From a virus (lineage: Duplodnaviria; Caudoviricetes), in IMG/VR virus record IMGVR_UViG_3300032280_000651, positions 1-64,000 of that record: a stretch of 64,000 nt of DNA, one strand, 5' to 3'. A program made the position numbers and the translations under genes. This document shows positions 4,996-18,796 of this stretch, piece by piece. Under the pieces are notes generated by a model. The model was not told the origin of the DNA, did no database searches, and saw nothing but the letters and a program-made list of their open reading frames with translations. Within the stretch, counting starts at the first letter, position 1, and each line of letters opens with the position of its first letter.

Positions 4996-5116
4996 TTTGG
5001 TAGTTTAAAACTTATGAGTATCTTTGTACTCTATTAAAATAAAAATAAAATATGGGATTTCTATTCGGATTACTACTAGGTTACTTACTTTGGGGAAATA
5101 AAAATAACTAAAATAA

Positions 5117-5347
5117 ATGGAAAAGTTTTTCTTAACAATTATGCACTCTTGGGGTTCAGATACTCCACAAGAAGTATTCTGGGGACTAAATGATTTGATC
5201 ACCTGGGCAAAAACAAAGGGGTTTGATAATAAAGGATTATTTTTTGATGATCCAATTGGTTACAATGTAGATGAAGATAAAGCACAAAAAGATAATGAAC
5301 AGTTAGTAAAAGAACTTTCAGAGTTTTTTGAAAAAAATTTAAAATAA
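5117..5347 (+). CDS. Hypothetical protein
   Basis: 76 aa ORF with AT-rich initiation region. Confidence 0.6.
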   Translation: MEKFFLTIMHSWGSDTPQEVFWGLNDLITWAKTKGFDNKGLFFDDPIGYNVDEDKAQKDNEQLVKELSEFFEKNLK

Positions 5348-5348
5348 A

Positions 5349-5380
5349 TTTGGTACAATAGAAAACTTTTTATACTTTTG
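5349..5380 (+). promoter_or_regulatory. Bacteroidota-type sigma promoter of tRNA operon 1
   Basis: TTTG (5349-5352), 20 nt, TACTTTTG (5373-5380); matches the -33/-7 consensus TTTG/TAnnTTTG. Confidence 0.75.
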
Positions 5381-5391
5381 TACTATAAAAA

Positions 5392-5423
5392 TAACAAAAT
5401 AACAAAATAACAAAATAACAAAA
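5392..5423 (+). repeat. Tandem 8-mer (TAACAAAA)x4
   Basis: Units start at 5392, 5400, 5408 and 5416. Confidence 0.9.
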
Positions 5424-5453
5424 AGGGAGAATAAACTTTTAATATATACAATA

Positions 5454-5555
5454 ATGAAAACAACTAATCTAAATATTAACTTAACGCTGAATGTCTTATG
5501 TCTAAGACAAAGACCGGGTTTTGCTATATTTAGAGCAAATGATTTTAGTTGGTAA
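5454..5555 (+). CDS. Attenuator leader peptide 1 (Leu/Arg), 33 aa
   Basis: MKTTNLNINLTLNVLCLRQRPGFAIFRANDFSW; 5 Leu (CTA, TTA, CTG, TTA, CTA) and 3 Arg (all AGA); lies between promoter and terminator. Confidence 0.8.
   Translation: MKTTNLNINLTLNVLCLRQRPGFAIFRANDFSW
5515..5523 (+). promoter_or_regulatory. Antiterminator strand of attenuator 1
   Basis: CGGGTTTTG is the exact reverse complement of CAAAACCCG (5584-5592), the 5' arm of the terminator. Confidence 0.7.
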
Positions 5556-5584
5556 TAACTGAAAGTATATCTAAATAATATAAC

Positions 5585-5617
5585 AAAACCCGAAATGTAA
5601 AAGTTTCGGGTTTTTTT
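5585..5617 (+). terminator. Intrinsic terminator of attenuator 1
   Basis: AAAACCCGAAA-tgtaaaag-TTTCGGGTTTT plus T-tract, 20 nt before the first tRNA. Confidence 0.85.
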
Positions 5618-5637
5618 ATGTAAAAAAATAAATAATT

Positions 5638-5709
5638 GGCCTCATCGTTCAACGGATAGGACTAAAGCCTTCTAAGCTTTCAATCGGGGTTCGAATCCCT
5701 GTGGGGTCA
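5638..5709 (+). tRNA. tRNA-Arg(UCU)
   Basis: Cloverleaf; anticodon arm aaagc-CTTCTAA-gcttt; GGTTCGAATCC T-arm. Confidence 0.9.
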
Positions 5710-5721
5710 CAAAATAAATAT

Positions 5722-5808
5722 GCGTCTGTGGTGAAATTGGTAGTACACGCAGGTCTTAAAAATCTGTGGTCAGGAATGACCGTGAGGGTTCGACTCCCTC
5801 CAGACGTA
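5722..5808 (+). tRNA. tRNA-Leu(UAA)
   Basis: caggt-CTTAAAA-atctg; long variable arm; GTTCGACTC. Confidence 0.9.
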
Positions 5809-5817
5809 CAAAAATAT

Positions 5818-5898
5818 GCCCCGTTAGTTCCGACTGTCTTCTAAACAGTTAAGGATAATTGGACGCTGAAAATGTAGGTTCGAGTCCTACACGGGGTA
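5818..5898 (+). ncRNA. D-arm-less tRNA-like RNA, anticodon UCU (Arg)
   Basis: 7-bp acceptor, 8-nt linker instead of a D arm, actgt-CTTCTAA-acagt, 24-nt extra region, canonical T arm. Confidence 0.75.
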
Positions 5899-5909
5899 CA
5901 AAATCACTT

Positions 5910-5994
5910 GTCGGAGTGGTGGAATGGTAGACACGCAGGTCTTAAACACCTGTGCTCCGGAAGGGGCGTGAGGGTTCGAGTCCCTCCTCCGATA
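5910..5994 (+). tRNA. tRNA-Leu(UAA), second copy
   Basis: caggt-CTTAAAC-acctg; long variable arm. Confidence 0.9.
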
Positions 5995-6002
5995 CAATAT
6001 AT

Positions 6003-6085
6003 GCCGAGGTGGTGGAATGGTAGACACGCTGGTCTAAGAAGCCAGTGTCCGAAAGGACGTGCGGGTTCGAGTCCCGCTCTCGGTA
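6003..6085 (+). tRNA. tRNA-Leu(AAG)
   Basis: ctggt-CTAAGAA-gccag; variable arm gtcc-gaaa-ggac. Confidence 0.9.
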
Positions 6086-6090
6086 CAAAA

Positions 6091-6173
6091 GCACCAGTGG
6101 TGGAACTGGTATACACGGTGGCCTCAAAAGCTACTATCTATATGATGTGTGGGTTCGACTCCCACCTGGTGTA
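6091..6173 (+). tRNA. tRNA-Leu(CAA)
   Basis: gtggc-CTCAAAA-gctac. Confidence 0.9.
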
Positions 6174-6180
6174 CAAAAAT

Positions 6181-6263
6181 GCGGGTATGGGGGAATGGTA
6201 GACCCGCCAGATTTAGGATCTGGTGTCCGAAAGGACGTGTCGGTTCGAGTCCGACTACCCGTA
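6181..6263 (+). tRNA. tRNA-Leu(UAG)
   Basis: ccaga-TTTAGGA-tctgg; long variable arm. Confidence 0.9.
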
Positions 6264-6277
6264 CAAAAATTAAAAAT

Positions 6278-6502
6278 ATGAAACTAATTAAAGTTGAAGA
6301 TAAGATATATGAAGTGAAACCTTGTTTACATTGTAAGAAGGATGAAGTAGAATATGTCGAACAAGATCTTCCTTTTAATAATGAAGGATGGGCATGTAAT
6401 TATTGTGATTCAACATATGTGATTTTCAATACTGAGATAGCTGAAGATGTTACTCTTAGAGAAGAAAGAGAAGAAAAGTTAAAAAATATAATAAAAGATT
6501 AG
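6278..6502 (+). CDS. Small zinc-ribbon protein
   Basis: CLHC...CNYC; true start ATG 6278, since the ORF-track extension runs through tRNA genes. Confidence 0.7.
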   Translation: MKLIKVEDKIYEVKPCLHCKKDEVEYVEQDLPFNNEGWACNYCDSTYVIFNTEIAEDVTLREEREEKLKNIIKD

Positions 6503-6532
6503 GTAGTAGAACAAAAAAATATGATAATATTT

Positions 6533-6563
6533 TTTGTAGATTAAAAAACTTATAGTATATTTG
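6533..6563 (+). promoter_or_regulatory. Bacteroidota-type promoter of tRNA operon 2
   Basis: TTTG (6533-6536), 19 nt, TATATTTG (6556-6563). Confidence 0.7.
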
Positions 6564-6649
6564 TACTCTGTAATAATACAGAAAGTGTTTTACACTACTA
6601 TAATTAAAGAAAAACAAAAAGGGACAATAAAAATATAATATATAATACA

Positions 6650-6739
6650 ATGAAAACAAATACTATAAATATTAATGTGATTACGATTACGAATTGTGTG
6701 AATAGCACGACTTCGGGTAAGCGATTATGTATAGTATAA
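6650..6739 (+). CDS. Attenuator leader peptide 2 (Thr/Ile/Asn/Val/Cys), 29 aa
   Basis: MKTNTININVITITNCVNSTTSGKRLCIV; codons 3-18 are only T, N, I, V or C. Confidence 0.8.
   Translation: MKTNTININVITITNCVNSTTSGKRLCIV
6712..6718 (+). promoter_or_regulatory. Antiterminator strand of attenuator 2
   Basis: TTCGGGT is complementary to ACCCGAA (6768-6774) in the terminator 5' arm; can instead pair upstream in hairpin 6690-6715. Confidence 0.65.
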
Positions 6740-6763
6740 TGACATATATTATATACAATTTAT

Positions 6764-6800
6764 AAAGACCCGAACTCAAAAAGTTTGGGTCTTTTCTTTT
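6764..6800 (+). terminator. Intrinsic terminator of attenuator 2
   Basis: AAAGACCCGAAC-tcaaaaa-GTTTGGGTCTTT plus TCTTTT, 6 nt before the first tRNA. Confidence 0.85.
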
Positions 6801-6806
6801 ATATAT

Positions 6807-6878
6807 TCTCCTATGGTGAAATGGTTATCACGTCTGACTGTTAATCAGTTATTCCAGGTTCGAGTCCTGGTGGGAGAG
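6807..6878 (+). tRNA. tRNA-Asn(GUU)
   Basis: Loop CTGTTAA; G73. Confidence 0.9.
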
Positions 6879-6885
6879 CAAATAT

Positions 6886-6960
6886 TCCTCCGTAGCTATA
6901 ATGGTTTAGAGCGGCGTTTTGTTAAAGCGATGGTTACAGGTTCGAGTCCTGTCGGAGGAG
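6886..6960 (+). tRNA. tRNA-Asn(GUU), second copy
   Basis: Loop TTGTTAA; G73; 27:43 mismatch. Confidence 0.85.
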
Positions 6961-6969
6961 CAAATATAT

Positions 6970-7050
6970 TGGCACATACCAGCCCAACCTGATAAGTTGG
7001 AGAACTGTAAATGGTTGTTGAAAATGTGGGTTCAAATCCCTCTGTGCCAA
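6970..7050 (+). ncRNA. D-arm-less tRNA-like RNA, anticodon GAU (Ile)
   Basis: 7-bp acceptor, 7-nt linker, ccaac-CTGATAA-gttgg, 25-nt extra region ending TGAAAAT, T arm; same length and layout as 5818..5898. Confidence 0.75.
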
Positions 7051-7063
7051 CAAAAAAATATAT

Positions 7064-7149
7064 GGGACTGTGGTGTAGTTGGTTAAACATCCCACTCTTA
7101 CAAAGTGGAGACGAGAAGTATAACGTAGGTTCGAATCCTACCAGTCCTA
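7064..7149 (+). tRNA. tRNA-Val(UAC) with 16-nt variable region
   Basis: ccact-CTTACAA-agtgg. Confidence 0.85.
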
Positions 7150-7160
7150 CAAAAATACCT

Positions 7161-7235
7161 TGGTCGGTATATCAATTGGTTTAGATTATCACGCTGATAC
7201 CGTGAAGGTTGCGAGTTCGAGTCTCGCCCGACCAA
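7161..7235 (+). tRNA. tRNA-Ile(GAU)
   Basis: tcacg-CTGATAC-cgtga. Confidence 0.9.
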
Positions 7236-7301
7236 CAAAAAATTAAAGGTTCGAAACAGATGGAAGTGTCAATTTTTAATATATATAAATAAAAAACATA
7301 T

Positions 7302-8018
7302 ATGTTAAAAATAGAAAAATTACAATTAGAATTACTAATAGATAAAGGACTCTCTTTAAAAATTATTGCAGAAGAATTAAATATATCATATTCGACTATT
7401 AATAGACTATGTAATAAATATAATTTAAAGTCTAAATTTAATGAGTCAAAAAATGAACTAGTTAATTGTATTGAATGTGATATAGAATTTAATGGAAATA
7501 AAAAAGAAGAAAGAAAGTTTTGTAGTAGATCGTGTTCGGTTACTTATAATAATAGAATTAAAATTTTCACAGATGATACTAAACTAAAAATAAGTAATAC
7601 ATTAAAAAGTAGAAATAAAAAAGTAATTAAAATAAGACTATGTAAAAATTGTGATAATCTAGTTGGATATAAAAAAATAATATGTGATAGTTGTAGAGTA
7701 GATTATTATCAGTATTATAGACCAGCATCAAATTTCAATTTCGATATAAATCTCTACAAAGATAAGTTTGAACTTTCATTAGTTACTAAATATGGTTGGT
7801 ACAGCCCTTCAAATAAAGGTAATAACCTAAACGGTGTGAGTAAAGATCATTTATTTAGTGTTAAAGATGGTTTCGATAATAAAGTTAGTGTAGATCTAAT
7901 AAAACATCCGGCGAATTGTAAATTAATGATACATAAGGATAACCAAGTTAAAAATAGTAAAAGTGTAATAACACTAGAAGAATTGTTAAAAAGAATAGAA
8001 GAATGGAATAAGAAATAA
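7302..8018 (+). CDS. Putative HNH-like homing endonuclease inside tRNA array 2
   Basis: N-terminal HTH, CxxC zinc motifs, C-terminal SKDHLFS...HPANC...HKDNQVK His-Me finger. Confidence 0.65.
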   Translation: MLKIEKLQLELLIDKGLSLKIIAEELNISYSTINRLCNKYNLKSKFNESKNELVNCIECDIEFNGNKKEERKFCSRSCSVTYNNRIKIFTDDTKLKISNTLKSRNKKVIKIRLCKNCDNLVGYKKIICDSCRVDYYQYYRPASNFNFDINLYKDKFELSLVTKYGWYSPSNKGNNLNGVSKDHLFSVKDGFDNKVSVDLIKHPANCKLMIHKDNQVKNSKSVITLEELLKRIEEWNKK

Positions 8019-8020
8019 AT

Positions 8021-8108
8021 GGTATAGTGCCTGAGTGGTCGAAAGGTGCGGTCTGCAAAACCGTAATGATTAATTTCATCATCGTGGGTTCAAATCCTAC
8101 CTATACCT
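8021..8108 (+). tRNA. tRNA-Cys(GCA) with long variable arm
   Basis: gcggt-CTGCAAA-accgt; U73; variable stem atga/tcat. Confidence 0.85.
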
Positions 8109-8112
8109 CAAA

Positions 8113-8199
8113 TGTAGAGACAACAAGGATGATAGGAAAAAGTATTAACTAGTTCGAATCTAGGCCGGGTCTTAACGGACCTGGCATTACAACTCTACA
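8113..8199 (+). ncRNA. Rearranged tRNA-like RNA (terminal stem, T-arm, closed 8-bp hairpin)
   Basis: TGTAGAG/CTCTACA terminal stem; ctag-TTCGAAT-ctag followed directly by gccgggtc-ttaacg-gacctggc. Confidence 0.55.
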
Positions 8200-8203
8200 A
8201 ATT

Positions 8204-8276
8204 GCCGATATAGCTCAATAGGTAGAGTGCCAACTTGGTAGGTTGGAGGTTAAGGGTTCGATTCCCTTTATCGGAT
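8204..8276 (+). tRNA. tRNA-Thr(GGU)
   Basis: ccaac-TTGGTAG-gttgg; G1:A72 mismatch. Confidence 0.85.
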
Positions 8277-8284
8277 CAAATAAT

Positions 8285-8364
8285 GCTGGTGTCGCATAGT
8301 GGCCGATTGCACCTACCTTGTAAGTAGGAATTCCACACCGCAGGTTCGAATCCTGTCACTAGCT
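8285..8364 (+). tRNA. tRNA-Thr(UGU)
   Basis: cctac-CTTGTAA-gtagg; 11-nt variable loop. Confidence 0.85.
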
Positions 8365-8369
8365 CTGAA

Positions 8370-8401
8370 AAAAGACTTCTTTTAATTAAGAAGTCTTTTT
8401 T
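8370..8401 (+). terminator. Terminator closing tRNA operon 2
   Basis: AAAAGACTTCTT/AAGAAGTCTTTT hairpin plus T-tract. Confidence 0.75.
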
Positions 8402-8485
8402 ATTTTAAACTAAATCCGTATCTTTGTATATAAATAAAAAGTAAAATATGTTGATATGGACTAATATACTTTTAATATATAGTAT

Positions 8486-9262
8486 ATGGATACAAATAAA
8501 ATAATTGAACTATCAAAAGATAAAACTCAAAAAGAAATCGCAGAAATATTTAAAGTTTCTTCTTCGACAATAGGAAGAATACTTAAAAAAAATAATATAA
8601 AAACAAATCGTTCAAGACTAAATGAAAGTAAATTATATTTTAATATGAATTATTTTGATGATATTGATACAAATGAGAAAGCATACTGGTTGGGATTTAT
8701 TGCAGCAGATGGTTGTCTTAAATCTAATAAAGTTAGACTTGTTTCAAAAGATGAGGAAGTAATAGTAAAATTTAAAAATGCTATTGAGTCAGAACATAAA
8801 ATTGTAAGATCAATAACTACTGATAAACGTAGTGGAAAAAAATATGAACTATTTATAATTTCAATAACTAATAATATATTCACTAAAAAATTAGAAAAAT
8901 TTATAAATATCGATAAAAGCAATAATTTTAATCTTCCAAAAATAGACAATAGTTTATATCCATTTTTCCTCGCAGGTATGTTTGATGGAGATGGTTCTTT
9001 TTCAATATATGGTTGTAATAAAAATAAAATTAAAGCAAGTTTAATATCTACTAAAGAGTGTTTAGAACAAATAATAAATTTATTAGAGGTAGAGATAAAT
9101 TTAAAGAAAAGACCAACAATAATAAAACATTACACAACATATAGATTTTATCTGTATAAATATAGTACGTATTTTTTAGACTATATCTATAATGAAAAGT
9201 ATAAAACAATATATCTAAGTAGAAAATATAATAAATATTATGAATATAAAAATAGAAAGTAA
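8486..9262 (+). CDS. LAGLIDADG homing endonuclease with N-terminal HTH
   Basis: AYWLGFIAADGC and FLAGMFDGDGS motifs. Confidence 0.85.
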   Translation: MDTNKIIELSKDKTQKEIAEIFKVSSSTIGRILKKNNIKTNRSRLNESKLYFNMNYFDDIDTNEKAYWLGFIAADGCLKSNKVRLVSKDEEVIVKFKNAIESEHKIVRSITTDKRSGKKYELFIISITNNIFTKKLEKFINIDKSNNFNLPKIDNSLYPFFLAGMFDGDGSFSIYGCNKNKIKASLISTKECLEQIINLLEVEINLKKRPTIIKHYTTYRFYLYKYSTYFLDYIYNEKYKTIYLSRKYNKYYEYKNRK

Positions 9263-9698
9263 AAAAAAACGGATATTTGTTGATTTAGATGGAGTTTTGT
9301 GTGATTTTTTTGGAGCATTTAAAGATGTTCGTAGAAAAGACCCTGACTTTAAATTTCCTCAATCACGAATAGGTTTTTTCAAAAATCTTGAACCAATGCC
9401 AGATGCAATTGAGTCTTTTAATAAATTAAAAGAACATTATGACGTTTGGATTTTAACACGTCCTTCATTTAAAAATATCAATTGTTTTAACGAAAAAGCT
9501 GAGTGGGTATTAGAACATTTAGGTTTTGATATATTAGAAAAAACGATTATGTGCGGTGATAAATCTTTAGTGAAAGGTGACTACCTTATTGATGATAATG
9601 GTCAAAATGGGCAACCTGAATTTGAAGGTGAATGGATTGAATTTGCATCAGAAGAATTTCCTGATTGGACTGCAGTTATTGATTACTTAATTAAGTAA
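9240..9698 (+). CDS. 5'(3')-deoxyribonucleotidase (NT5C, HAD fold)
   Basis: IFVDLDGVLCDF, ILTRP, KGDYLIDD. Confidence 0.85.
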   Translation: MNIKIESKKKRIFVDLDGVLCDFFGAFKDVRRKDPDFKFPQSRIGFFKNLEPMPDAIESFNKLKEHYDVWILTRPSFKNINCFNEKAEWVLEHLGFDILEKTIMCGDKSLVKGDYLIDDNGQNGQPEFEGEWIEFASEEFPDWTAVIDYLIK

Positions 9699-9699
9699 A

Positions 9700-10038
9700 T
9701 TATCTAAGCCACCAATCACCACCTTTAATTTCTTCAAAGTCTTTAACATCATATTTATACTTATAAACCCAACACTCAATATCTTTTGATGTGTTTGTTT
9801 TAACTCTTATATACTCATCACCTTCAAAATCATCTAGTTCAGGAAATAATGATGAGTCTATAAGATATATATCACCTAAAACTTCACCAGAACCACTTAC
9901 AAAACCAGGATAGAATTCATTTACTTTATAGATCTTACCTTTGATTGTTGCTCTTCCAAAAAAAACAGGTTTCTTTAGTAGATTTTTCGCACTATCTCTA
10001 AATTGACCATATACAAATAAATATTCTTTCATAATCAA
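9700..10038 (-). CDS. Gamma-glutamylcyclotransferase (AIG2-like)
   Basis: LFVYGQFR and LDDFEG. Confidence 0.8.
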   Translation of the reverse strand: MIMKEYLFVYGQFRDSAKNLLKKPVFFGRATIKGKIYKVNEFYPGFVSGSGEVLGDIYLIDSSLFPELDDFEGDEYIRVKTNTSKDIECWVYKYKYDVKDFEEIKGGDWWLR

Positions 10039-10433
10039 TAATAACCTTTTCCCATAACAGAATGTCTAACACCACCTCTTGGATTTTCTACATCACCAGT
10101 ATATCTTGGAATTAAATGACAATGAAATTGCATTACTGTTTGTCCTGCTGGTTCACCACAATTCATTCCTATATTGTAACCATCTGGTTCATATTGTGAC
10201 TCAACTATCTCCTTTGCTTTATCTAACATTTCAGATAGTTTATTCTTTTTAGATTGACTTAAATCAAAGTAAGTTTCTTCTGGTCCATTTGTTATAATAA
10301 GGATGTGACCTGGACTTGTTGGAAATCCATCAAACATTATAAAGAAGTCACTATCTTGATACAAGACTTTATCGTCTTCTATCATATGTCTTCCGAACTT
10401 AACATCTTCATTTAAACTTGTAAACTTTCTCAT
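10035..10433 (-). CDS. HIT family hydrolase
   Basis: PTSPGHILI and QFHCHLIPRY; likely start MRKFTSLNE at 10433 behind a TATATA motif. Confidence 0.85.
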   Translation of the reverse strand: MRKFTSLNEDVKFGRHMIEDDKVLYQDSDFFIMFDGFPTSPGHILIITNGPEETYFDLSQSKKNKLSEMLDKAKEIVESQYEPDGYNIGMNCGEPAGQTVMQFHCHLIPRYTGDVENPRGGVRHSVMGKGYY

Positions 10434-10443
10434 ATAGTATATA

Positions 10444-11310
10444 TTAAAAATCAGATTTATATTTCCATATAAATCCAGCGTGTGATTTTCTCTTACCGGT
10501 ACAAACATTTATAACATTACTCTTTTGAAATCCCGAATCAACTAAACCATTTAAGTTACTCCACTCTTTTACTATATTACCATCCGTATCAATTTGTAGA
10601 ATAATATCTTTTATCTTACCTTTATTATGCGGTTCTTTCCCAAGTCTTGCAATAGATTGCTTTTGTCTTGTTTCATCAGATACTATTTTACCTCTATTGG
10701 ATTCTGCTAATTTATCTTTATGTTCCTGTGATAAAGGAACACCTCTTAATTTAGCAGTTCTTTTTTCAATCCATTCTTCACTCTGCTTAATACCAGTTTT
10801 AATTTCAATCATTTTATCAATAGACGATTGTTTATGTTTTTTACCATACATGGGATGATTTTTACCTGATAGTATGATATTTTTATTCCAATAATCTTGT
10901 AATCTTAGATGATTTTTATTCTCAACTGCTTTTATACTCATTTTTTCTTTAACATCATCAGTATATACATAACCAGATACACCATCACCACCATCAGTCA
11001 TATTATATAATAAGCCACCTGATTTCTTTCTACCTAAATACTTTATTAATTTAATCTCTAAATCAATAGCTTCTTCTTCACTTTCAAACTCTTTTAATTT
11101 TACTATTAATGGTATATTTTCTTCTAAAATCATTTTATTTAACTTATTATAAAAATAATATTTATATCTTTTCCTATCATTAAGATGTGTAAACATTCTA
11201 TTGTTTTGACCCTTACCAATATAAATAGGTCTATGTGTAAAAATAATATCACCAAAAGATATATTTTCTTCCATTTTTGAATCTAAATAACCATATACAT
11301 AATATTTCAT
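10444..11310 (-). CDS. GIY-YIG-type homing endonuclease with NUMOD3/NUMOD1 motifs
   Basis: YYVY...IYIGKG..NR; HPMYGKKH; AGFIWKY C-terminus. Confidence 0.8.
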   Translation of the reverse strand: MKYYVYGYLDSKMEENISFGDIIFTHRPIYIGKGQNNRMFTHLNDRKRYKYYFYNKLNKMILEENIPLIVKLKEFESEEEAIDLEIKLIKYLGRKKSGGLLYNMTDGGDGVSGYVYTDDVKEKMSIKAVENKNHLRLQDYWNKNIILSGKNHPMYGKKHKQSSIDKMIEIKTGIKQSEEWIEKRTAKLRGVPLSQEHKDKLAESNRGKIVSDETRQKQSIARLGKEPHNKGKIKDIILQIDTDGNIVKEWSNLNGLVDSGFQKSNVINVCTGKRKSHAGFIWKYKSDF

Positions 11311-11360
11311 ATACTATATATAAAATAAAATCAACTACCTTTTAGCATTATCAATAAAAA

Positions 11361-13577
11361 TTACTCAAATAAAGGAAACGAAGGAAGCACGAGACGAGTG
11401 TTCGCATTATCTGCAAAAACTAAATACTTAGAATCGTCTCTAATGATAGCTTGATTAAGTATCTTATCAAATGTAGATTCTGGTATAATGTCTGTGAATA
11501 ATCTTAAATTAGTAGCCCTCATATCAGAACCTAACAATTGAGGATTAGTATTCTCAATTTGGAATTCAATTGGTGTCATATCTTGTTCATCTGAATAAAC
11601 TTTTCTCAAGAAGTTATTGATTAGTTTACCAGCATCTTCTTCAAAATCAACATTACGTTTATAAATAAATTGAGACATTTTTCTATTTCTTTGATCTATA
11701 TTTAAAGTATAACAATACCAAACTTCTTCATCTAACATTAAATCAGAATTAGTTGTATAAGTATCACCATTTAAAGTAACTGTTATTACATCATTTTGTA
11801 AATTAACTTTCCAACCAATTGGATTACCAACAGTAGTATCATCATAATAATTAAAGAAGTTATAAACTTCATCTTGGATATAATTATTGATACTAAACCA
11901 AAGAGTAAATCCAATGTTATCAGATACCTTTAATATAGGATCGGAATTAAGGTAATTTACTGCTGGAGTTCCTGCATCAACTGAATATAAATCATAGTTA
12001 GATTTAGAAATAATAGTAGAAGCATTTTCAATAAGTTCTTTGTTAATCTTAGCCAAATATTCTAGTCTAATTAAATCTTTAGTTAGAACTTTAGTTTGAA
12101 TTTTATTAGCAACTGCTTTTTTATCATCAACATTCTCAACACCAAATAATGAATCAATAGTAGAGTTCTGTGTAAGCATATCCAATTTGTTTTGAATTTC
12201 CACAGTACCTGCTTGTACATTTGCTTTTTGGTTGTATTTTTTCAGAATTAATTTATAATAAACAGACGAGTTATTAAATCCTCTAAATTGAGATACGTGG
12301 TCTACTTGAAACATTCTATTTAATTGACAGAAGTACATAAAGTCTTCTTTACCTGGTCTTCTTTGAACACCAAATACTTGTTTAAATTGTTCTTTTGTAA
12401 TATGTACTTCCATATTATCAAACAAACTTAAATCAAATTGATTCATTGTGATTTGAGAATCTGGAAACTCATTATTATTCACAGATACTTTTATATCACC
12501 TTCACAAACAATGTTATATAATTGATACTCATGCATTGAATAATCTTGTCCTTTTGCATCAGGATCAGTTACAAAGTAAATAACTGAATGTCCGAATAAT
12601 AGTTGTGCATCTGTACTTAATTTATTTAAAAGATTAAGTGCAGTACCTTGATTATATGGATTATAAAGAAGTGCTTGTTGATCTGCAGTTGTTTTTGGAA
12701 ATAAGTTTGTTGCTTCACAACTACCTCCACCATCTGAGTTTAAATTAGTATTAGGTATGAAATTTCCATTTGCATCAAATGTACCAGTTAAATTAGATTG
12801 ACAACATTCTCTTAAACCATATAAATTAGTTTTTTGATAATCTAAAGTAACATTTTGAAAGTTTCCGATAAGATTTATGTCTTGTATTTTTACTGGTGAA
12901 TCAGAAGTGTTTTCGATAGAGTATTCAACCTCAAAAAATCTTGTAGGTGTCAATCTTTTAGTAGAAACATTTTCTTTTGTTAAAACCTCCCAATCAGACC
13001 AAGTTCTAGAGCTATCTTGTGAGTATCTCCATTTTAAAGTTGCACCTTCAACACCGGTCGATGAAATAACTTCTACATCTTCTAACTTAAATACTTTATA
13101 AATAAATGGTGGTTTAATAACTTGAGTACCACCAGGAACTAACTGTACTGCAGAACCATCATCAGTCATAGGTCTATCAATATTTCCCTCAATTTTATAT
13201 TCTAATATTCTAATAGAACCAATAGAGTTATTACCTTTTCTTACCCACTTAATATCTAAATATAAAGGATCTAATGGGTCGATTGTTGGAAAATTATCGA
13301 TATTCTTTTTAAGGTCAAACCAAGTAGTCCATTTATTACCGTCTCTTGATAATCTATAATACTGAGCCAAATATCTGGTATCAGTCATACCTAAAGTATC
13401 GTAAGTAAATTTGGATAATTTGCTAACATTTTGTATATTTGTAAAACTAATGATGTATTCTTCTGCTATACTATTAATATAGGGTGTTGCATCAGGTGCA
13501 GAAGCAGATGCACCGATGTTAAATTTATCAGAAATAACGATAGTTCCACTTAAAGTATTTGTATCTATTGTAAACAT
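11361..13577 (-). CDS. Neck protein, T4 gp14-like core with N- and C-terminal extensions
   Basis: Central LFGHSVIYF...FDLSLFDNMEVHITKEQF...RPGKEDFMYF...NRMFQVDHV resembles gp14; C-terminus LamG-like. Confidence 0.65.
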   Translation of the reverse strand: MFTIDTNTLSGTIVISDKFNIGASASAPDATPYINSIAEEYIISFTNIQNVSKLSKFTYDTLGMTDTRYLAQYYRLSRDGNKWTTWFDLKKNIDNFPTIDPLDPLYLDIKWVRKGNNSIGSIRILEYKIEGNIDRPMTDDGSAVQLVPGGTQVIKPPFIYKVFKLEDVEVISSTGVEGATLKWRYSQDSSRTWSDWEVLTKENVSTKRLTPTRFFEVEYSIENTSDSPVKIQDINLIGNFQNVTLDYQKTNLYGLRECCQSNLTGTFDANGNFIPNTNLNSDGGGSCEATNLFPKTTADQQALLYNPYNQGTALNLLNKLSTDAQLLFGHSVIYFVTDPDAKGQDYSMHEYQLYNIVCEGDIKVSVNNNEFPDSQITMNQFDLSLFDNMEVHITKEQFKQVFGVQRRPGKEDFMYFCQLNRMFQVDHVSQFRGFNNSSVYYKLILKKYNQKANVQAGTVEIQNKLDMLTQNSTIDSLFGVENVDDKKAVANKIQTKVLTKDLIRLEYLAKINKELIENASTIISKSNYDLYSVDAGTPAVNYLNSDPILKVSDNIGFTLWFSINNYIQDEVYNFFNYYDDTTVGNPIGWKVNLQNDVITVTLNGDTYTTNSDLMLDEEVWYCYTLNIDQRNRKMSQFIYKRNVDFEEDAGKLINNFLRKVYSDEQDMTPIEFQIENTNPQLLGSDMRATNLRLFTDIIPESTFDKILNQAIIRDDSKYLVFADNANTRLVLPSFPLFE

Positions 13578-13676
13578 AATTTATATATTAAAAAAATAAT
13601 TCTATAATGTTTGTATATTAAAATAATATGTGTATATTTGCATGTTATTAATTATAATAATAAAAAAATCGCTAAA

Positions 13677-14894
13677 ATGAATATAACAAAAAAATTCTTA
13701 CAACTAACATCTAAAACTTATCCTCACGGTACAGAGAGTGAGCTATTTCACTTGTTACCTAAAAGCTTACAAGAGGATGAATTTGGTAACTTATTTATTA
13801 AAATAGGTGAGAGCGATGCTATGTTTACTTCCCACTTAGATACTGCGACTAAAGCTAACACTAAAGTTAATCATATCTTTGATGGTGACATTATCAAAAC
13901 TGATGGTACTACTATATTAGGTGCTGACGACAAAGCTGGTGTAACAATTATGTTAAATATGATTGAAAACAAAATTCCAGGTTTGTATTACTTTTTCTTA
14001 GGTGAAGAAGTAGGTTGTGTTGGTTCTAGAAAAGTTGCTGATGTACAAAAAGTAGAGAAAATTCCAGGTATCAACAAAGTAATCTCTTTTGACCGTAGAG
14101 CTACAACTTCTATTATTACTTATCAAAGTTCAAAAAGATGTTGTTCAGATGCTTTCGGTGAAGCTCTTGCAAAAGCGTTTAACGATGTAGAATCAACATT
14201 TGATTATAAATTAGATAAAAATGGTGTTTTAACTGACTCTATACAATTCATTGGTATTTATCCAGAGTGTACAAACATTTCTGTTGGTTATTACGATGAA
14301 CACACATTTAGAGAAAGACAAGATATTGCTCACTTAACTAAACTTGCAGAAGCTTGTTTAAAAGTTGATTGGACAAGTTTACCTGTAGAAAGAGATCCTT
14401 CTAAAATCGAATACGATTACTCTTGGAGTGCTTATGGTGACGACTGGGGTTGGGGTGCTGGTGCTTGGGGTGGTTCTTCAAGATACGACACTGGTAACTA
14501 CACAAACGCTTATGCTCCGGTAAACAATGATTACAGTACATCAAGATCAAAATACGGTGCATACAAAGTAAAAACTGAGAAATCTTGGTTTTATGACGAG
14601 ACATTCCAATTCTTATCAATGGTTGAAACTAACGCTACAACTGGTAAAATAGTTAAAGTAGAATTGATTGAAGAAAGAGTTAAATACGAAGCTAAACTAA
14701 TCGAAAGATTATTCAAAGATATTGAATTACACTACACTAAAATGGAGTGGGATGGTTTCAAATGTACAGTATTCTATGAGTCTGAACACAGAACAGAATG
14801 TGATAGAAATGATTTATTAGATTACCTACCAGATTTAGACTATCGTGGTCTAGAAATTTTAGGTGATCCAGAAGATTCTACTTACATGAGCTAA
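13677..14894 (+). CDS. M28/M20-type Zn aminopeptidase
   Basis: SHLDT, LGADDKAG, GEEVG, SFDR and TNISVGYYDEH ligands; TATATTTG promoter upstream. Confidence 0.8.
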   Translation: MNITKKFLQLTSKTYPHGTESELFHLLPKSLQEDEFGNLFIKIGESDAMFTSHLDTATKANTKVNHIFDGDIIKTDGTTILGADDKAGVTIMLNMIENKIPGLYYFFLGEEVGCVGSRKVADVQKVEKIPGINKVISFDRRATTSIITYQSSKRCCSDAFGEALAKAFNDVESTFDYKLDKNGVLTDSIQFIGIYPECTNISVGYYDEHTFRERQDIAHLTKLAEACLKVDWTSLPVERDPSKIEYDYSWSAYGDDWGWGAGAWGGSSRYDTGNYTNAYAPVNNDYSTSRSKYGAYKVKTEKSWFYDETFQFLSMVETNATTGKIVKVELIEERVKYEAKLIERLFKDIELHYTKMEWDGFKCTVFYESEHRTECDRNDLLDYLPDLDYRGLEILGDPEDSTYMS

Positions 14895-14962
14895 TAAAAA
14901 AAAGTCGAGATTTCAAATCTCGACTTTTTTATTTTAATATATAAGAAAATAGAATTACTTAA

Positions 14963-15535
14963 ATGACAAACATATTTGATAGAGAAGTATGGAAAAAATA
15001 TCTACCTAAAAAATTAACTATTATTACAGATAATGGTAATTTTGATTTACTATTTTCGGAAGTATCAATAATTGGTAATATTAATGTTGCACAAATAACA
15101 TATCACCAAAACACATTTAAACATAATGAATTAAATGGTGAACCGGATTATTTAGAATTTGATATTCATTTAGTACAAGATAATGATGGTACAAAAGCTT
15201 TATCTGATCTTAAATTAAATATAGATATTACCTATGGTGATGCAATGGTATCAGAGTTTATTATAAAAATGCCCGGTAATATAGAAATTATACATTACAC
15301 AGGACTAGGCTCTAAATATGATAAAGAAACATTCTTTGGATTTGAAGATCAATCAATAAAAGATTTAGTAAACTTTTTTAATAGACTTGGATTTGAACTA
15401 GAACCTAAAGATTTCACATTTATTGATAAATACCCAGATAGCTATACTCATAAAGAGTCAATTAAATTAATAAGCGATATAAAGTATCTACAAACATATG
15501 AAGGTTTTAGAAAAAAAATAAAAAATAAACTATGA
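14963..15535 (+). CDS. Hypothetical protein
   Basis: 190 aa ORF behind TTTTAATATATA. Confidence 0.65.
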   Translation: MTNIFDREVWKKYLPKKLTIITDNGNFDLLFSEVSIIGNINVAQITYHQNTFKHNELNGEPDYLEFDIHLVQDNDGTKALSDLKLNIDITYGDAMVSEFIIKMPGNIEIIHYTGLGSKYDKETFFGFEDQSIKDLVNFFNRLGFELEPKDFTFIDKYPDSYTHKESIKLISDIKYLQTYEGFRKKIKNKL

Positions 15536-15759
15536 TACCACAAATTGAAATTACAGAAGAACAAATTCAAAAATCCGTATCTGCTGCATTTGACTCTGTC
15601 AATCTAATAAATGAACTAAATGCACAACCTTCTTTAACTGAAGAAGATCAAGATAGATTAAATAGAAATAAAGAACATCTAACAATAATGTTAGATAAAG
15701 ATTGGTTTTTTGCTACTTTAACAGAAGAACAAAAAACTGACATTAACGCTTGTCTATAA
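15532..15759 (+). CDS. Hypothetical protein
   Basis: 75 aa ORF overlapping the previous stop. Confidence 0.6.
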   Translation: MIPQIEITEEQIQKSVSAAFDSVNLINELNAQPSLTEEDQDRLNRNKEHLTIMLDKDWFFATLTEEQKTDINACL

Positions 15760-15777
15760 AAAAAACAAAAAAAAACA

Positions 15778-16200
15778 ATGGCTATAGTAAAATTTGACGA
15801 TTTCAAAAAAGAAGAAGAACAAAGTAAACTTCAAGACTTCAAAAGAGGATTCACTAAAAATAGTGACAATCAACAATTTCCTAAAAATACAAAATCACGT
15901 TTTAATAATAAAACTAGAAAAATAGATGATTTATCTGCTGAAGAAGTTGATGATAAAATTGAAGTTTTAGAAGAATCTAAAATCAATGAATCTAGTATTG
16001 ACTATGATGTATTAGATAAAATGGTTAAACTACCTTGTTATAACAAACTAAGAGAAGATCTTAGAAGTGCTATAAACGAGTTTACAACTAGTTTATCTGA
16101 TAGTTCATCAGAAATTGGATATGACGAAGGTGATACAGATCATGATATGGCTTTTAATGCAGCAATTCAACAAGCAATTGATGAAATAGTTGGTTGGTAG
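15778..16200 (+). CDS. Hypothetical protein
   Basis: N-terminus MAIVKFDDFK. Confidence 0.6.
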   Translation: MAIVKFDDFKKEEEQSKLQDFKRGFTKNSDNQQFPKNTKSRFNNKTRKIDDLSAEEVDDKIEVLEESKINESSIDYDVLDKMVKLPCYNKLREDLRSAINEFTTSLSDSSSEIGYDEGDTDHDMAFNAAIQQAIDEIVGW

Positions 16201-16241
16201 TTTGGAAAAATAATTCTATATTTGCAGAATAATAATATAAG

Positions 16242-16775
16242 ATGATAAAAAAATTTGAAAACTTCAATAAGAAGAAAGTTATAGTATTTCACGGACTAGG
16301 TGGAGAACCTAATTCAGAAAGAACTAACATATTAAGAAACTTTGGATATGAAGTAGTTTATCCACACATTGATTTTGAAATGGAATGGTCTAAAGATAAA
16401 GGTAAATCCTTATTTGAAAGAACTTCAAGATTAGCAGAAGGATGTGATCTAATAATAGGTGTTAGTTTAGGTGGTTATCTAGCAAGTTTAATTGGTAATT
16501 ATTTAGGTATTGATTGTATCTTAATAAATCCCGCACTAGACAGAAACAAAACAAGATTAGATATAAAAAATCTAGATTGTCCACACCTATCTAATAAATG
16601 TAATATGGAAGTATTCATCGGAGATAAAGATACTTTAATACCAAAAGAATATACATTAGATTATATTAAAGATAATAATATTAATTGTAAAATTCATCAT
16701 ATCATTGGTATGGAACACAGATGCTCACTAAATAACTTTTTAGAGATTTTAAATCAAAGTAGTTTGGTAGTTTAG
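16242..16775 (+). CDS. Alpha/beta hydrolase (YqiA-like esterase)
   Basis: FHGLGG, GVSLGG nucleophile elbow, LINPAL, D...H. Confidence 0.8.
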   Translation: MIKKFENFNKKKVIVFHGLGGEPNSERTNILRNFGYEVVYPHIDFEMEWSKDKGKSLFERTSRLAEGCDLIIGVSLGGYLASLIGNYLGIDCILINPALDRNKTRLDIKNLDCPHLSNKCNMEVFIGDKDTLIPKEYTLDYIKDNNINCKIHHIIGMEHRCSLNNFLEILNQSSLVV

Positions 16776-16865
16776 AAAAAAGTAGTATCTTTGTAAAACA
16801 AATGAGATAAAACTCAAATAAAAATAAAAAAAGTTTGGTAAAATGAAAACTTTGTATTACTTTTG
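16763..16865 (+). promoter_or_regulatory. Two tandem Bacteroidota-type promoters of tRNA operon 3
   Basis: TTTG 16763 + 19 nt + TATCTTTG 16786; TTTG 16834 + 20 nt + TACTTTTG 16858. Confidence 0.7.
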
Positions 16866-16921
16866 TAGTATAAAATCAAAGAAAAACAAAAAGGAACAAT
16901 AAAAGTTTAATATATAGTAAT

Positions 16922-17020
16922 ATGAAAAATGTAAATGTAAATATCGTAGTTATGCCGCAGCCGATGCAGGATCAGGATCGTTTCACGAACCAGACTAACT
17001 ATGTATTTATATCACATTAA
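16922..17020 (+). CDS. Attenuator leader peptide 3 (Met/Pro/Gln/Asp), 32 aa
   Basis: MKNVNVNIVVMPQPMQDQDRFTNQTNYVFISH; codons 11-19 are only M, P, Q or D. Confidence 0.8.
   Translation: MKNVNVNIVVMPQPMQDQDRFTNQTNYVFISH
16992..16999 (+). promoter_or_regulatory. Antiterminator strand of attenuator 3
   Basis: AGACTAAC is complementary to GTTAGTCT (17050-17057) in the terminator 5' arm. Confidence 0.65.
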
Positions 17021-17043
17021 GAAATTACGTGTATAAAAATTAC

Positions 17044-17078
17044 AAATCCGTTAGTCTTTGAGACTAACGGATTTTTTT
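17044..17078 (+). terminator. Intrinsic terminator of attenuator 3
   Basis: AAATCCGTTAGTCT-ttg-AGACTAACGGATTT plus T-tract. Confidence 0.9.
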
Positions 17079-17097
17079 ATGGAATAAAATTAAATAT

Positions 17098-17169
17098 TGG
17101 AGTATCGTATAATGGTAATTATTCAGGGTGTTGGCCCCTGCGATTTGGGTTCGAATCCTAATACTCTAA
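17098..17169 (+). tRNA. tRNA-Gln(UUG) with G33
   Basis: caggg-TGTTGGC-ccctg. Confidence 0.75.
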
Positions 17170-17175
17170 CAAATA

Positions 17176-17261
17176 CTAGGCATTGGGCAGAGGCTATACC
17201 CACCTGATTTGGGATCAGGATTCTTAACAGATAATCGTCAGTTCGAATCTGACTGCTTAGA
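17176..17261 (+). tRNA. tRNA-Pro(UGG) with 17-nt variable region
   Basis: cctga-TTTGGGA-tcagg. Confidence 0.8.
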
Positions 17262-17268
17262 CAAAAAT

Positions 17269-17357
17269 AGTCGTGTGGTGGCAAAGGTTGCCGACCTGCC
17301 TGTCACGCAGGGTTGTCTTCGGACATTGATATGCCGGTTCGAGTCCGGTCACGACTG
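17269..17357 (+). tRNA. tRNA-Asp(GUC) with long variable arm
   Basis: cctgc-CTGTCAC-gcagg; G73; variable hairpin tgtc-TTCG-gaca. Confidence 0.8.
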
Positions 17358-17365
17358 CAATATAC

Positions 17366-17439
17366 TGGAGTATCGTATAATGGCATAATTACACTGCGTT
17401 TTGACCGCAGCAACATAGGTTCGATTCCTATTACTCCAA
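17366..17439 (+). tRNA. tRNA-Gln(UUG)
   Basis: ctgcg-TTTTGAC-cgcag. Confidence 0.85.
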
Positions 17440-17448
17440 CAAAAATAA

Positions 17449-17522
17449 CGCGTAACGATCCACAGAGAGAGGTTACCCGACTTGGTATCGGGGTTATTGT
17501 CAGTTCGAGTCTGACTTACGCG
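17449..17522 (+). tRNA. tRNA-Pro(UGG), divergent D arm and U37
   Basis: cccga-CTTGGTA-tcggg; gtcag-TTCGAGT-ctgac. Confidence 0.7.
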
Positions 17523-17528
17523 ACGAAA

Positions 17529-17601
17529 TAGTGCTGTAGCTCAGTGGAAGAGTGTCTGGTTGTCGCCCAGAAGGTCGCGGGTTCAATCCCCGTCAGTACT
17601 G
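17529..17601 (+). tRNA. tRNA-Asp(GUC)
   Basis: tctgg-TTGTCGC-ccaga; G73. Confidence 0.85.
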
Positions 17602-17663
17602 CAATTTCGATTCCGATAGGGACCGATAATTATTTAATATATATAATAAAATAATTATTTATT

Positions 17664-18473
17664 ATGTATGAAAAAGTTTGTAAGTGGTGTGGTAATTTAA
17701 TCTCTGTTGAAAAACAACAATCATTTGCATCACATGTCGCTGGATGTATTATGAATCCAAAAGTAGAAGAACGATATAAAAAGAATAGTGAGCGATTCAA
17801 GGGTGTTCTAAAGGTTGAACGAATCGAAATATCTAAAGAGTGTCCTAAATGTAAAGAAATTTTTAAAGTAATTGCAACTGAATCAGAAATTAGACGTAAT
17901 AAGGTCAGATTATTTTGTTCTAGAAAGTGTTCCAATACAAGAATACATTCAGAGAAAACTAAAGAAAAAATGTCATCGGCATCAATTGGTATTATTCCTT
18001 ATAATAAAGGAGTTAAAAAAATTAAAAAATTTACTTGTCTTAAATGTGGTAAAGAAGGTATTATAAAAAGATATAACAATAAACAGAAGTATCATTCAGA
18101 ATGTTGGAGATTATCATCTGGTGGTATAAGACAGGGAAGTAGTAGAGGTAAAAGTGGTTGGTATAAAGGTTACTGGTGTGATAGTAGTTATGAACTAGCA
18201 TATCTTATTTACAATTTAGATAATTCTATTTTGATTGAAAGAAATAAAAATGGTTTTGAATATACTCATAATGATGAAAAACATTTATTCTATCCTGATT
18301 TCATAATAGGAGGTAAATATATTGAGATAAAGAATTATAAATCGGAACTTACTGATAGTAAAATATCACAATTTCCATATGAAATAGAAATATATTATAA
18401 AGAAGAAATGAAACCATTCATAGAATATGTAAAAAATAAATATGGTAAGGATTTTATAAAATTATATGAATAA
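17664..18473 (+). CDS. Putative zinc-finger PD-(D/E)xK homing endonuclease inside tRNA array 3
   Basis: CxxC repeats; CDSSYELAY...YPDF...YIEIK. Confidence 0.65.
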   Translation: MYEKVCKWCGNLISVEKQQSFASHVAGCIMNPKVEERYKKNSERFKGVLKVERIEISKECPKCKEIFKVIATESEIRRNKVRLFCSRKCSNTRIHSEKTKEKMSSASIGIIPYNKGVKKIKKFTCLKCGKEGIIKRYNNKQKYHSECWRLSSGGIRQGSSRGKSGWYKGYWCDSSYELAYLIYNLDNSILIERNKNGFEYTHNDEKHLFYPDFIIGGKYIEIKNYKSELTDSKISQFPYEIEIYYKEEMKPFIEYVKNKYGKDFIKLYE

Positions 18474-18474
18474 T

Positions 18475-18544
18475 ACCGAGTGATCTTGGGGATCAGAGAC
18501 GGTTCATATCTGACTCTAGAAGGGTTCGATCCCCTTGCTCGGTA
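18475..18544 (+). tRNA. tRNA with CAU anticodon (Met)
   Basis: Loop TTCATAT; short D arm gatc/gatc; mismatch in anticodon stem. Confidence 0.7.
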
Positions 18545-18550
18545 CAAATT

Positions 18551-18689: not shown

Positions 18690-18761
18690 GGCGTTGTATC
18701 TCAGAGGCAGAGAAGTCGGCTCATATCCGAACGGTCGGGATCTCGGAATTCCCCAACGCTA
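18690..18761 (+). tRNA. tRNA with CAU anticodon (Met), atypical T loop
   Basis: tcgg-CTCATAT-ccga; T loop CTCGGAA. Confidence 0.7.
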
Positions 18762-18796
18762 CTAACAAATAAGATTTCATTTTTAATATATAAATA

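Follow-up and report, generated by a model that had tools for sequence, protein, structure and literature searches.

The subject of this analysis is a short leader and the array of tRNA genes that follows it, together termed unit 1, in the first 64 kb (the window) of a 79,181-bp virus contig of 28.8% G+C from an uncultured phage (IMG/VR record IMGVR_UViG_3300032280_000651). Positions 5349–6264 are probably a single transcription unit which, judging from the predicted folds of its RNA, acts as a ribosome-mediated (leader-peptide) attenuator of seven Arg and Leu tRNA genes. We favour this reading because the leader open reading frame (ORF) and its Leu and Arg18 codons are conserved, the terminator and antiterminator covary, leaders match the arrays behind them, and there is no room for a promoter between the terminator and the first tRNA gene. 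An earlier interpretation made from the letters alone, referred to here as the sequence-only reading, had proposed that the leader samples the codons of the Arg and Leu tRNAs behind it; this core proposal is supported by the conservation, by the covariation and by a codon match that runs through the whole family of such units.

The proposed mechanism involves four RNA regions. A ribosome slowed at Leu codons 10–17 of the leader, or less effectively at Arg18 (AGA), would cover region 1 (5468–5489); region 2 (5515–5534) would then pair with region 3 (5570–5592), no terminator would form, and the tRNA genes would be transcribed. With fast decoding, the ribosome would pass region 2 and reach a stop codon located in an apical hairpin, after which region 2 would be either covered or re-paired with region 1, such that the terminator would form and transcription would end. 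Untranslated RNA would terminate too, because the 1:2 pairing forms first. The consequence would be a negative feedback on decoding capacity, in which a scarcity of usable Leu- or Arg-tRNA leads to the production of more phage Leu and Arg tRNA. Unit 1 would be one module of a set, each tRNA array of the phage lineage having its own codon-matched leader.

Leader, terminator and competing folds of unit 1

The leader ORF comprises 33 codons (5454–5555, plus strand) and lies upstream of the terminator and the tRNA array. Codons 10–20 are TTA ACG CTG AAT GTC TTA TGT CTA AGA CAA AGA, as the sequence-only reading had given them; based on the ORF and its homologues, the sensor codons are Leu10 (TTA), Leu12 (CTG), Leu15 (TTA), Leu17 (CTA) and Arg18 (AGA), at 5481–5507, and further Leu and Arg codons are present at Leu6, Arg20 and Arg27. 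Relative to the contig's own amino-acid usage, Leu and Arg are enriched both in the leader as a whole (8 of 32 residues, p=0.025) and in its richest stretch of 11 residues, which holds six of them (p=0.006). It had also been pointed out that every Arg codon in the leader is AGA. This is true of all three, but it is uninformative: AGA makes up 81% of the Arg codons in the long ORFs of the contig, and three out of three would be expected by chance with a probability of ~0.5. The exclusive use of AGA therefore carries no weight, and it was dropped as evidence for sensing of Arg(UCU).

The intrinsic terminator (5585–5621, plus strand; −14.5 kcal/mol) consists of a 12-bp stem (5585–5596 with 5603–5614), a 6-nt loop and a tract of seven U (5615–5621). 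The gap between it and the first tRNA gene, which begins at 5638, is 23 nt; this leaves no room for a promoter, and the array can therefore be reached by read-through only.

The array (5638–6264, plus strand) encodes, in order, tRNA-Arg(UCU), Leu(UAA), a UCU tRNA-like gene without a D arm, Leu(UAA), Leu(AAG), Leu(CAA) and Leu(UAG), and the list of seven in the sequence-only reading was thus right. Six are called by ARAGORN: Arg(tct) at 5638–5710, Leu(taa) at 5722–5809, Leu(taa) at 5910–5995, Leu(aag) at 6003–6086, Leu(caa) at 6091–6174 and Leu(tag) at 6181–6264. The seventh, at 5818–5898, has no ARAGORN call and scores 40.5 bits with the Rfam tRNA model (cut-off 29); its anticodon loop is CUUCUAA (UCU), no more than 3 nt of the D arm are left, and it has a variable insert of 21 nt. 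CCA is encoded by none of the genes, which are separated by spacers of 5–12 nt, and maturation would therefore need both 3′ trimming and a CCA-adding enzyme. The genes end at the discriminator base and are followed by CAAAA-like spacers. A second 81-nt tRNA-like gene is found at 6970–7050 (anticodon GAU by eye; Rfam tRNA 34.5 bits; no ARAGORN call). In both tRNA-like genes, the acceptor, anticodon and T arms are normal, the D arm is almost gone, and there is an insert of ~21 nt after the anticodon arm; a copy of the UCU gene is also present in relative L003.

In the minimum free energy (MFE) and centroid structures of the full leader, region 1, the anti-antiterminator strand (5468–5489, plus strand), pairs via 5468–5476 and 5483–5489 with 5526–5534 and 5515–5520, respectively. 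Region 2 (5515–5534) provides, on the basis of the folds and of complementarity, the 5′ strands of the antiterminator helices P1 (5515–5523) and P2 (~5525–5534). Their 3′ strands (5584–5592 for P1 and 5570–5582 for P2) are predicted to lie in region 3 (5570–5592), which overlaps the 5′ arm of the terminator, and region 4 (5603–5614) is the terminator 3′ arm; regions 2, 3 and 4 are likewise on the plus strand. The antiterminator is capped by the apical hairpin P3 (5543–5564, plus strand), with the stop codon (5553–5555) in its loop; P3 appears in the folds of all 15 homologues described below, despite their differing C-terminal peptides and sequences. A further hairpin, P0 (5493–5514, plus strand), is predicted inside the sensor codons, with 84% of cells paired in the homologues; it is a possible pause hairpin.

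The pairing of 5515–5523 with 5584–5592 had been singled out in the sequence-only reading as a 9-bp antiterminator in competition with the terminator. The complement is exact over its 9 nt, it overlaps the terminator 5′ arm (5585–5596), and one of at least 9 nt was reached in 27 of 20,000 shuffles of the leader (p ~0.0014). The antiterminator is, however, predicted to be larger than these 9 bp of P1, since the folds add the second helix and the apical hairpin. The segment 5490–5600 folds as this three-tier structure at −32.1 kcal/mol (z −6.9), and the fold of the full leader has −40.6 kcal/mol (z −5.4). Through the shared segment of the 5′ arm, the antiterminator, comprising P1 and the second helix, and the terminator are predicted to be mutually exclusive. 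A competing hairpin, TTTGCT/AGCAAA (5520–5539), had also been put forward: it can be drawn, yet it is outside the MFE and centroid structures, and 8 of the 15 homologues have lost its 3′ strand by deletion. This 6-bp hairpin (5520–5525/5534–5539) was thus rejected as the protector, being neither in the predicted folds nor conserved; according to the folds, the conserved anti-antiterminator is region 1, through its pairing with 5515–5534.

Conservation of unit 1 and the match between leaders and arrays

Homologues of unit 1 were gathered by two pattern scans, one of IMG/VR viral contigs and one of metagenome contigs. The viral scan, which was made first and used a 16-base core, gave 13 matches, 7 of which were due to chance, whereas all 17 matches of a longer pattern on the metagenome contigs were true. 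Unit 1 was found in five IMG/VR contigs of 7–132 kb and at the 17 metagenome matches, always with the leader ORF; Arg(tct)/Leu tRNAs lie downstream in 20 of the 22 loci, that is, in all those with enough downstream sequence. Fifteen distinct homologues were aligned.

The ATG, the reading frame and the stop codon are kept in all 15, including across an upstream in-frame 3-nt indel. Leu10, Leu12, Leu15, Leu17 and Arg18 (AGA) are invariant, and the Leu codons change only synonymously (CTA, TTG or TTA for Leu17). Codon 20 encodes Arg in six homologues and Gly, Glu or Lys in the others, the C-terminal third of the peptide varies between homologue groups, and one group has two extra AGA codons at positions 8–9, well within region 1. 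Such a pattern would be expected under selection on the identity of the Leu residues and Arg18 and on the RNA pairings, and not on the peptide as such.

These observations bear on whether the ORF is translated at all. The folds could be real but set by an RNA-binding antiterminator protein of the phage or of its host, or by direct tRNA binding in the manner of a T-box, since a conserved and covarying terminator and antiterminator needs no translation in itself; moreover, no candidate Shine–Dalgarno sequence is found close to the leader ATG. Use of the Shine–Dalgarno sequence is generally missing in Bacteroidota. The retention of ATG, frame and stop, the in-frame indel and the synonymous Leu changes all argue against a non-ribosomal factor, as does the TAATATATA motif, which stands before the leader ATG just as it does before ordinary genes. 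Mixed codon runs that match multi-tRNA arrays would be ill-suited to a single-specifier reader, and the T-box (RF00230) and other riboswitch families give no Rfam match at E≤1 in 5000–18000, on which basis a T-box or other riboswitch identity was ruled out. We consider control by such a factor very unlikely.

The pairings of the attenuator are conserved along with the codons. In the 1:2 helices, 100% of the cells are paired across the 15 homologues, where one change is compensatory and several are of the wobble type, and the pair 5515:5592 is C:G in seven sequences, U:A in five and a C/A mismatch in three. Covariation in the alignment is blurred by indels over P2 and P3, and per-sequence folds were used. 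In 15 of 15 such folds, GGGUUUUG passes through the same three states: it pairs upstream before region 3 is made, then with the terminator 5′ arm while the 3′ arm is still missing, and upstream again once the terminator is complete. The strongest covariation comes from a distant homologue in LR745206.1 (634,780 bp, unannotated), in which the terminator has the stem CCCUCAG/CUGAGGG and CUGAGGGUU is the corresponding leader segment. This segment lies directly after Arg-Pro, at the equivalent place in the leader, it is again a 9-nt complement, and the same three-state fold is predicted; the terminator stem and the leader segment have thus changed together.

The joint change also argues against the simplest view of the locus, namely, that it is an unregulated small gene with its own terminator, and that the array is expressed by constitutive leak-through or from a promoter that was not recognized. 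Short ORFs are frequent in AT-rich DNA, and one of them could have come to lie here. Nevertheless, only 23 nt run from the U tract to the first tRNA, the layout recurs for every array and is kept in at least 15 homologues, and the C-terminal half of the peptide is unconserved. We regard this explanation as highly improbable.

Unit 1 is not alone: the window carries three units of the same build. The leader of unit 2 (6650–6739) is rich in Asn, Ile, Val, Thr and Cys and precedes Asn, Val, Ile, Cys and Thr tRNAs, and that of unit 3 (16922–17020) contains the run PQPMQDQD and precedes Gln, Pro and Asp tRNAs. In the related contigs, which have 39–48 tRNA matches each, every array behind a terminator has its own matched leader: Lys tRNAs have a Lys-rich one, the Arg(acg)/Ser array has SSSSSSRSS, the Lys/Trp/Phe/His array has KSFKWFSHKF, and the leader of the Tyr/Glu/Ile(tat)/Gly/Ala array combines GGYEAGY with ATA codons. 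The leaders follow their arrays when these are rearranged. In the related contig G004, the Tyr/Glu/Ile(tat)/Gly/Ala array is split in two, and each half has a leader: one contains YEGYYYEEE, the other three ATA codons and, after them, a run of Gly and Ala. G004 also has the Leu and the Asn/Ile/Val/Cys/Thr arrays joined into one, with a single mixed leader in front. The match extends to individual codons, with CGC, CGT or CGA before Arg(acg/gcg/tcg) and AGA before Arg(tct), although CGN makes up only ~13% of Arg codons; for Ile, the leaders use ATA ahead of Ile(tat) and ATT ahead of Ile(gat). When leaders and arrays are paired in every possible way, the actual pairing has the highest codon-match score of all 720 permutations in the related contig G001, of 24 in G004 and of 6 in the contig studied here. 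Complements of the terminator arm, always 3′ of the sensor codons, reach p<0.01 in 7 of 10 unit types (Fisher combined 7e-9).

The homologue in LR745206.1 (L048, 387700–387880) has a homologous promoter, leader and terminator before an array of mixed Asn, Arg, Leu, Val, Ile and Thr tRNAs; this leader is similar to the fused one in G004, and the core NLTLNV is common to it and to unit 1. This suggests either that a fused unit split into units 1 and 2 of the window or that the reverse took place. Two tRNA-like sequences with a CAT anticodon loop (18475–18545 and 18690–18762) follow the ORF at 17664–18473; neither has an ARAGORN call or an Rfam gathering score. They may belong to the set sensed by unit 3, the leader of which has two ATG codons within its Pro/Gln/Asp run.

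The match between leaders and arrays is also what decides against a general sensor of ribosome speed, or of transcription–translation coupling, in which any slowing would open all the tRNA units and the amino-acid match would be a by-product of history. The leader of unit 1 is no poorer in Asn, Thr, Ile, Val and Cys codons than in Leu and Arg codons, a start rich in Thr, Asn and Ile is common to all leaders, and a stall anywhere in region 1 is predicted to free region 2. However, in at least 10 unit types the core of the leader changes along with the array, and for Arg and Ile it does so at the level of isoacceptor-specific codons; moreover, the true assignment scores highest of the 720 possible ones, and the Leu positions of unit 1 tolerate synonymous changes only. 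A general sensor therefore seems unlikely to us.

Ribosome position and the case against attenuation

The effect of a stalled ribosome was modelled by masking 27 nt around each A-site codon and computing pair probabilities for a transcript ending at 5600. The modelled probability of P1 is 1.0 for stalls up to codon 17, 0.77 at Arg18, 0.28 at codon 19 and 0 at codons 20–27. With Arg20 in the A site, the ribosome covers 5496–5522; the caution in the sequence-only reading, that a ribosome at Arg20 might itself hide the antiterminator strand, is thus borne out by the comparison of masked and unmasked folds that it had called for, and Arg20 is in any case the residue kept as Arg in only 6 of 15 homologues. 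In this model, the four invariant Leu codons sit where a stall frees region 2, and Arg18 is borderline. For naked RNA, the MFE structure depends on the transcript end: it is the 1:2 pairing at 5536–5584, the antiterminator at 5590–5608 and the terminator from 5614. The barrier for conversion of 1:2 to 2:3 was estimated at ~11 kcal/mol, and at 7–18 among the homologues.

Several points weigh against attenuation by Leu and Arg codons. Taken alone, the enrichment of Leu and Arg in the unit 1 leader is modest, and its specificity is not clean, because 31% of its codons are served by the next array (Asn/Thr/Ile/Val/Cys), which matches the 25% served by its own. Within their codon families, CTG (1%), ACG (3%) and GTC (4%) are rare; these codons fall in paired segments, and their use may reflect structure rather than slow decoding. 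Arg18 is partly, and Arg20 fully, inside the zone masked by the ribosome. Covariation among the close homologues is thin, with a single double change in each of P1 and 1:2. Default termination would have to be kinetic and not an equilibrium outcome, because the antiterminator is the MFE structure of the naked RNA at 5590–5608. Furthermore, transcription–translation coupling in the presumed Bacteroidota host is assumed, and amino-acid starvation would also stall the ribosome, in which case extra tRNA would be of no help.

Promoter, genome context and relation to known attenuators

A putative promoter of the Bacteroidota type (TTTG, 20 nt, TAnnTTTG) is located at 5349–5380 on the plus strand and is kept in the unit 1 homologues. 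The pattern TTTG-N17-23-TAnnTTTG is over-represented, with 19 copies in the contig against 6.6 in shuffles, and a stricter TT[TA]GGTA form has six copies against 0.2; one copy of the pattern (TTTG, ~20 nt, TAnnTTTG) lies upstream of each of the three units. The pattern agrees with the Bacteroidota housekeeping promoter consensus. Between promoter and leader, a conserved box (5418–5435) and the TAATATATA motif (5440–5448) occupy 5418–5448 (plus strand) of the 5′ untranslated region (UTR), at a fixed distance from the leader ATG; the box is identical, and 18 nt upstream of the leader ATG, in all three units, and TAATATATA is also found upstream of at least eight ordinary ORF starts in the contig. 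More generally, both the three leaders and at least eight ordinary ORFs have the motif (T)TTAATATATA 4–26 nt ahead of their ATG, always on the plus strand (1689, 5440, 6636, 7277, 8473, 14935, 16908, 17635 and 18784 in the window; 71774 and 78040 in the contig). The motif may be a phage-specific promoter, whose transcripts would be leaderless or have a very short 5′ end, or it may be a signal for translation initiation. Also in the 5′ UTR of unit 1, an 8-nt unit, AACAAAAT, is present in four tandem copies at 5393–5424, and in one or two copies in the homologues.

Among 50,697 deposited phage records, no near DNA relatives of the contig were found, only tRNA-level matches and two huge uncultured phages. 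The latter are its closest deposited relatives, both of them unannotated records, of 634,780 bp (LR745206.1) and 642,428 bp, and a region encoding a Lon-like protease is ~70% identical to the two. By sequence, the phage is thus probably a relative of the huge Bacteroidota phages; a PHROG scan of the neighbouring genes gave no lineage marker. The largest genomes of the huge-phage study fall in the Mahaphage clade, with predicted Bacteroidetes hosts, and up to 67 tRNAs are reported per genome (PMC7162821).

PHROG matches identify auxiliary genes for a nicotinamide phosphoribosyltransferase, a peptidase and a Lon-like ATP-dependent protease (96–1691, 13611–14894 and 26861–28963). ORFs of 110–290 residues break tRNA arrays or separate a leader terminator from its first tRNA, both in the window (7302–8018 and 17664–18473) and at loci L031, L035, L036 and L037; their placement differs between relatives, and several have Cys-rich, zinc-finger-like N-termini. 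From their sequences and positions, they look like mobile insertions of the homing-endonuclease type; the ORF at 7302–8018 matches only PHROGs of unknown function. Between tRNA-Cys and tRNA-Thr, 8110–8200 has an acceptor-like stem (GTAGAG/CTCTAC) and an early T-arm-like hairpin and gives no Rfam match at E≤1; it is possibly a rearranged or decayed tRNA.

In its architecture, unit 1 resembles the classical attenuators. Translated leaders with 1:2, 2:3 and 3:4 pairings are known from leuL of Escherichia coli and Salmonella and from trpL, hisL and pheL. The leuL type shares with unit 1 a short translated leader with Leu sensor codons, some of them rare, and an RNA of four segments (1:2, the 2:3 antiterminator and the 3:4 terminator) with the stop codon between regions 2 and 3. 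Unlike leuL, unit 1 controls tRNA genes and not biosynthetic enzymes, its Leu codons (10, 12, 15 and 17) are interspersed rather than consecutive, it is phage-borne with a presumed Bacteroidota host, and there is no sequence similarity. Indeed, none of the enterobacterial Rfam leader families (Leu, Thr, His and Trp) reaches its gathering threshold: the only sub-threshold match is Thr_leader, at 24–27 bits against 55, over the terminator hairpin, and membership of such a family was rejected. The ilvGMEDA (Leu/Val/Ile) and thr (Thr/Ile) attenuators are multivalent, and here too a single leader samples several amino acids, namely, Leu and Arg in unit 1, five in unit 2 and three to four in unit 3; the difference is that the codons sampled here are those of the tRNA genes behind the terminator, and they change as arrays split or fuse. 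A leader peptide, pheM, controls the aminoacyl-tRNA synthetase genes pheST, and T-boxes read uncharged tRNA directly, with no ribosome. These systems have in common with unit 1 that genes of the translation apparatus are controlled via the state of the cognate tRNA pool, although in pheM-pheST it is the synthetase that is regulated, and here the tRNA genes.

Taken as a whole, unit 1 has the features by which attenuators are recognized in silico: a leader ORF, enriched codons, a terminator with no promoter behind it, and a predicted antiterminator and anti-antiterminator. To our knowledge, the leader-peptide attenuators described so far all regulate amino-acid biosynthesis or synthetase genes, whereas seven tRNA genes lie behind this terminator. 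The expression of tRNA genes is usually ascribed to promoter strength, growth rate and stringent control. In full-text literature searches, we found no description of leader-peptide attenuation of tRNA genes or of phage tRNA arrays, and the word stem 'attenuat' is absent from the huge-phage paper (PMC7162821). The novelty of unit 1 would thus be the application of a classical four-region attenuator to tRNA genes. Because the element sits unannotated in a public 634-kb phage genome, others are in a position to check the claim immediately.

If the attenuator reading is true, unit 1 would be a demand-driven switch that reads the decoding speed of the very codons that its own tRNAs serve. Such a regulatory logic would be new for the translation apparatus, and it would explain why the tRNA genes of these phages are sorted into arrays by amino acid. 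Such units would constitute compact, natural, isoacceptor-specific sensors of tRNA supply that could be reused in synthetic biology, and they would be relevant to the way in which phages that carry dozens of tRNAs deal with host codon mismatch and tRNA-targeting defences. More tentatively, and with a good deal of doubt, we raise the idea that the units together give huge Bacteroidota phages a tRNA homeostat that operates codon by codon across the genome, no array being transcribed unless ribosomes stall on the codons that it serves. Were this so, the phage would detect and repair a specific tRNA shortage, whether caused by host codon mismatch, by host shut-off or by anticodon-nuclease cleavage of host tRNAs, and its leaders would be rewritten as the arrays gain, lose, split or fuse tRNA genes.

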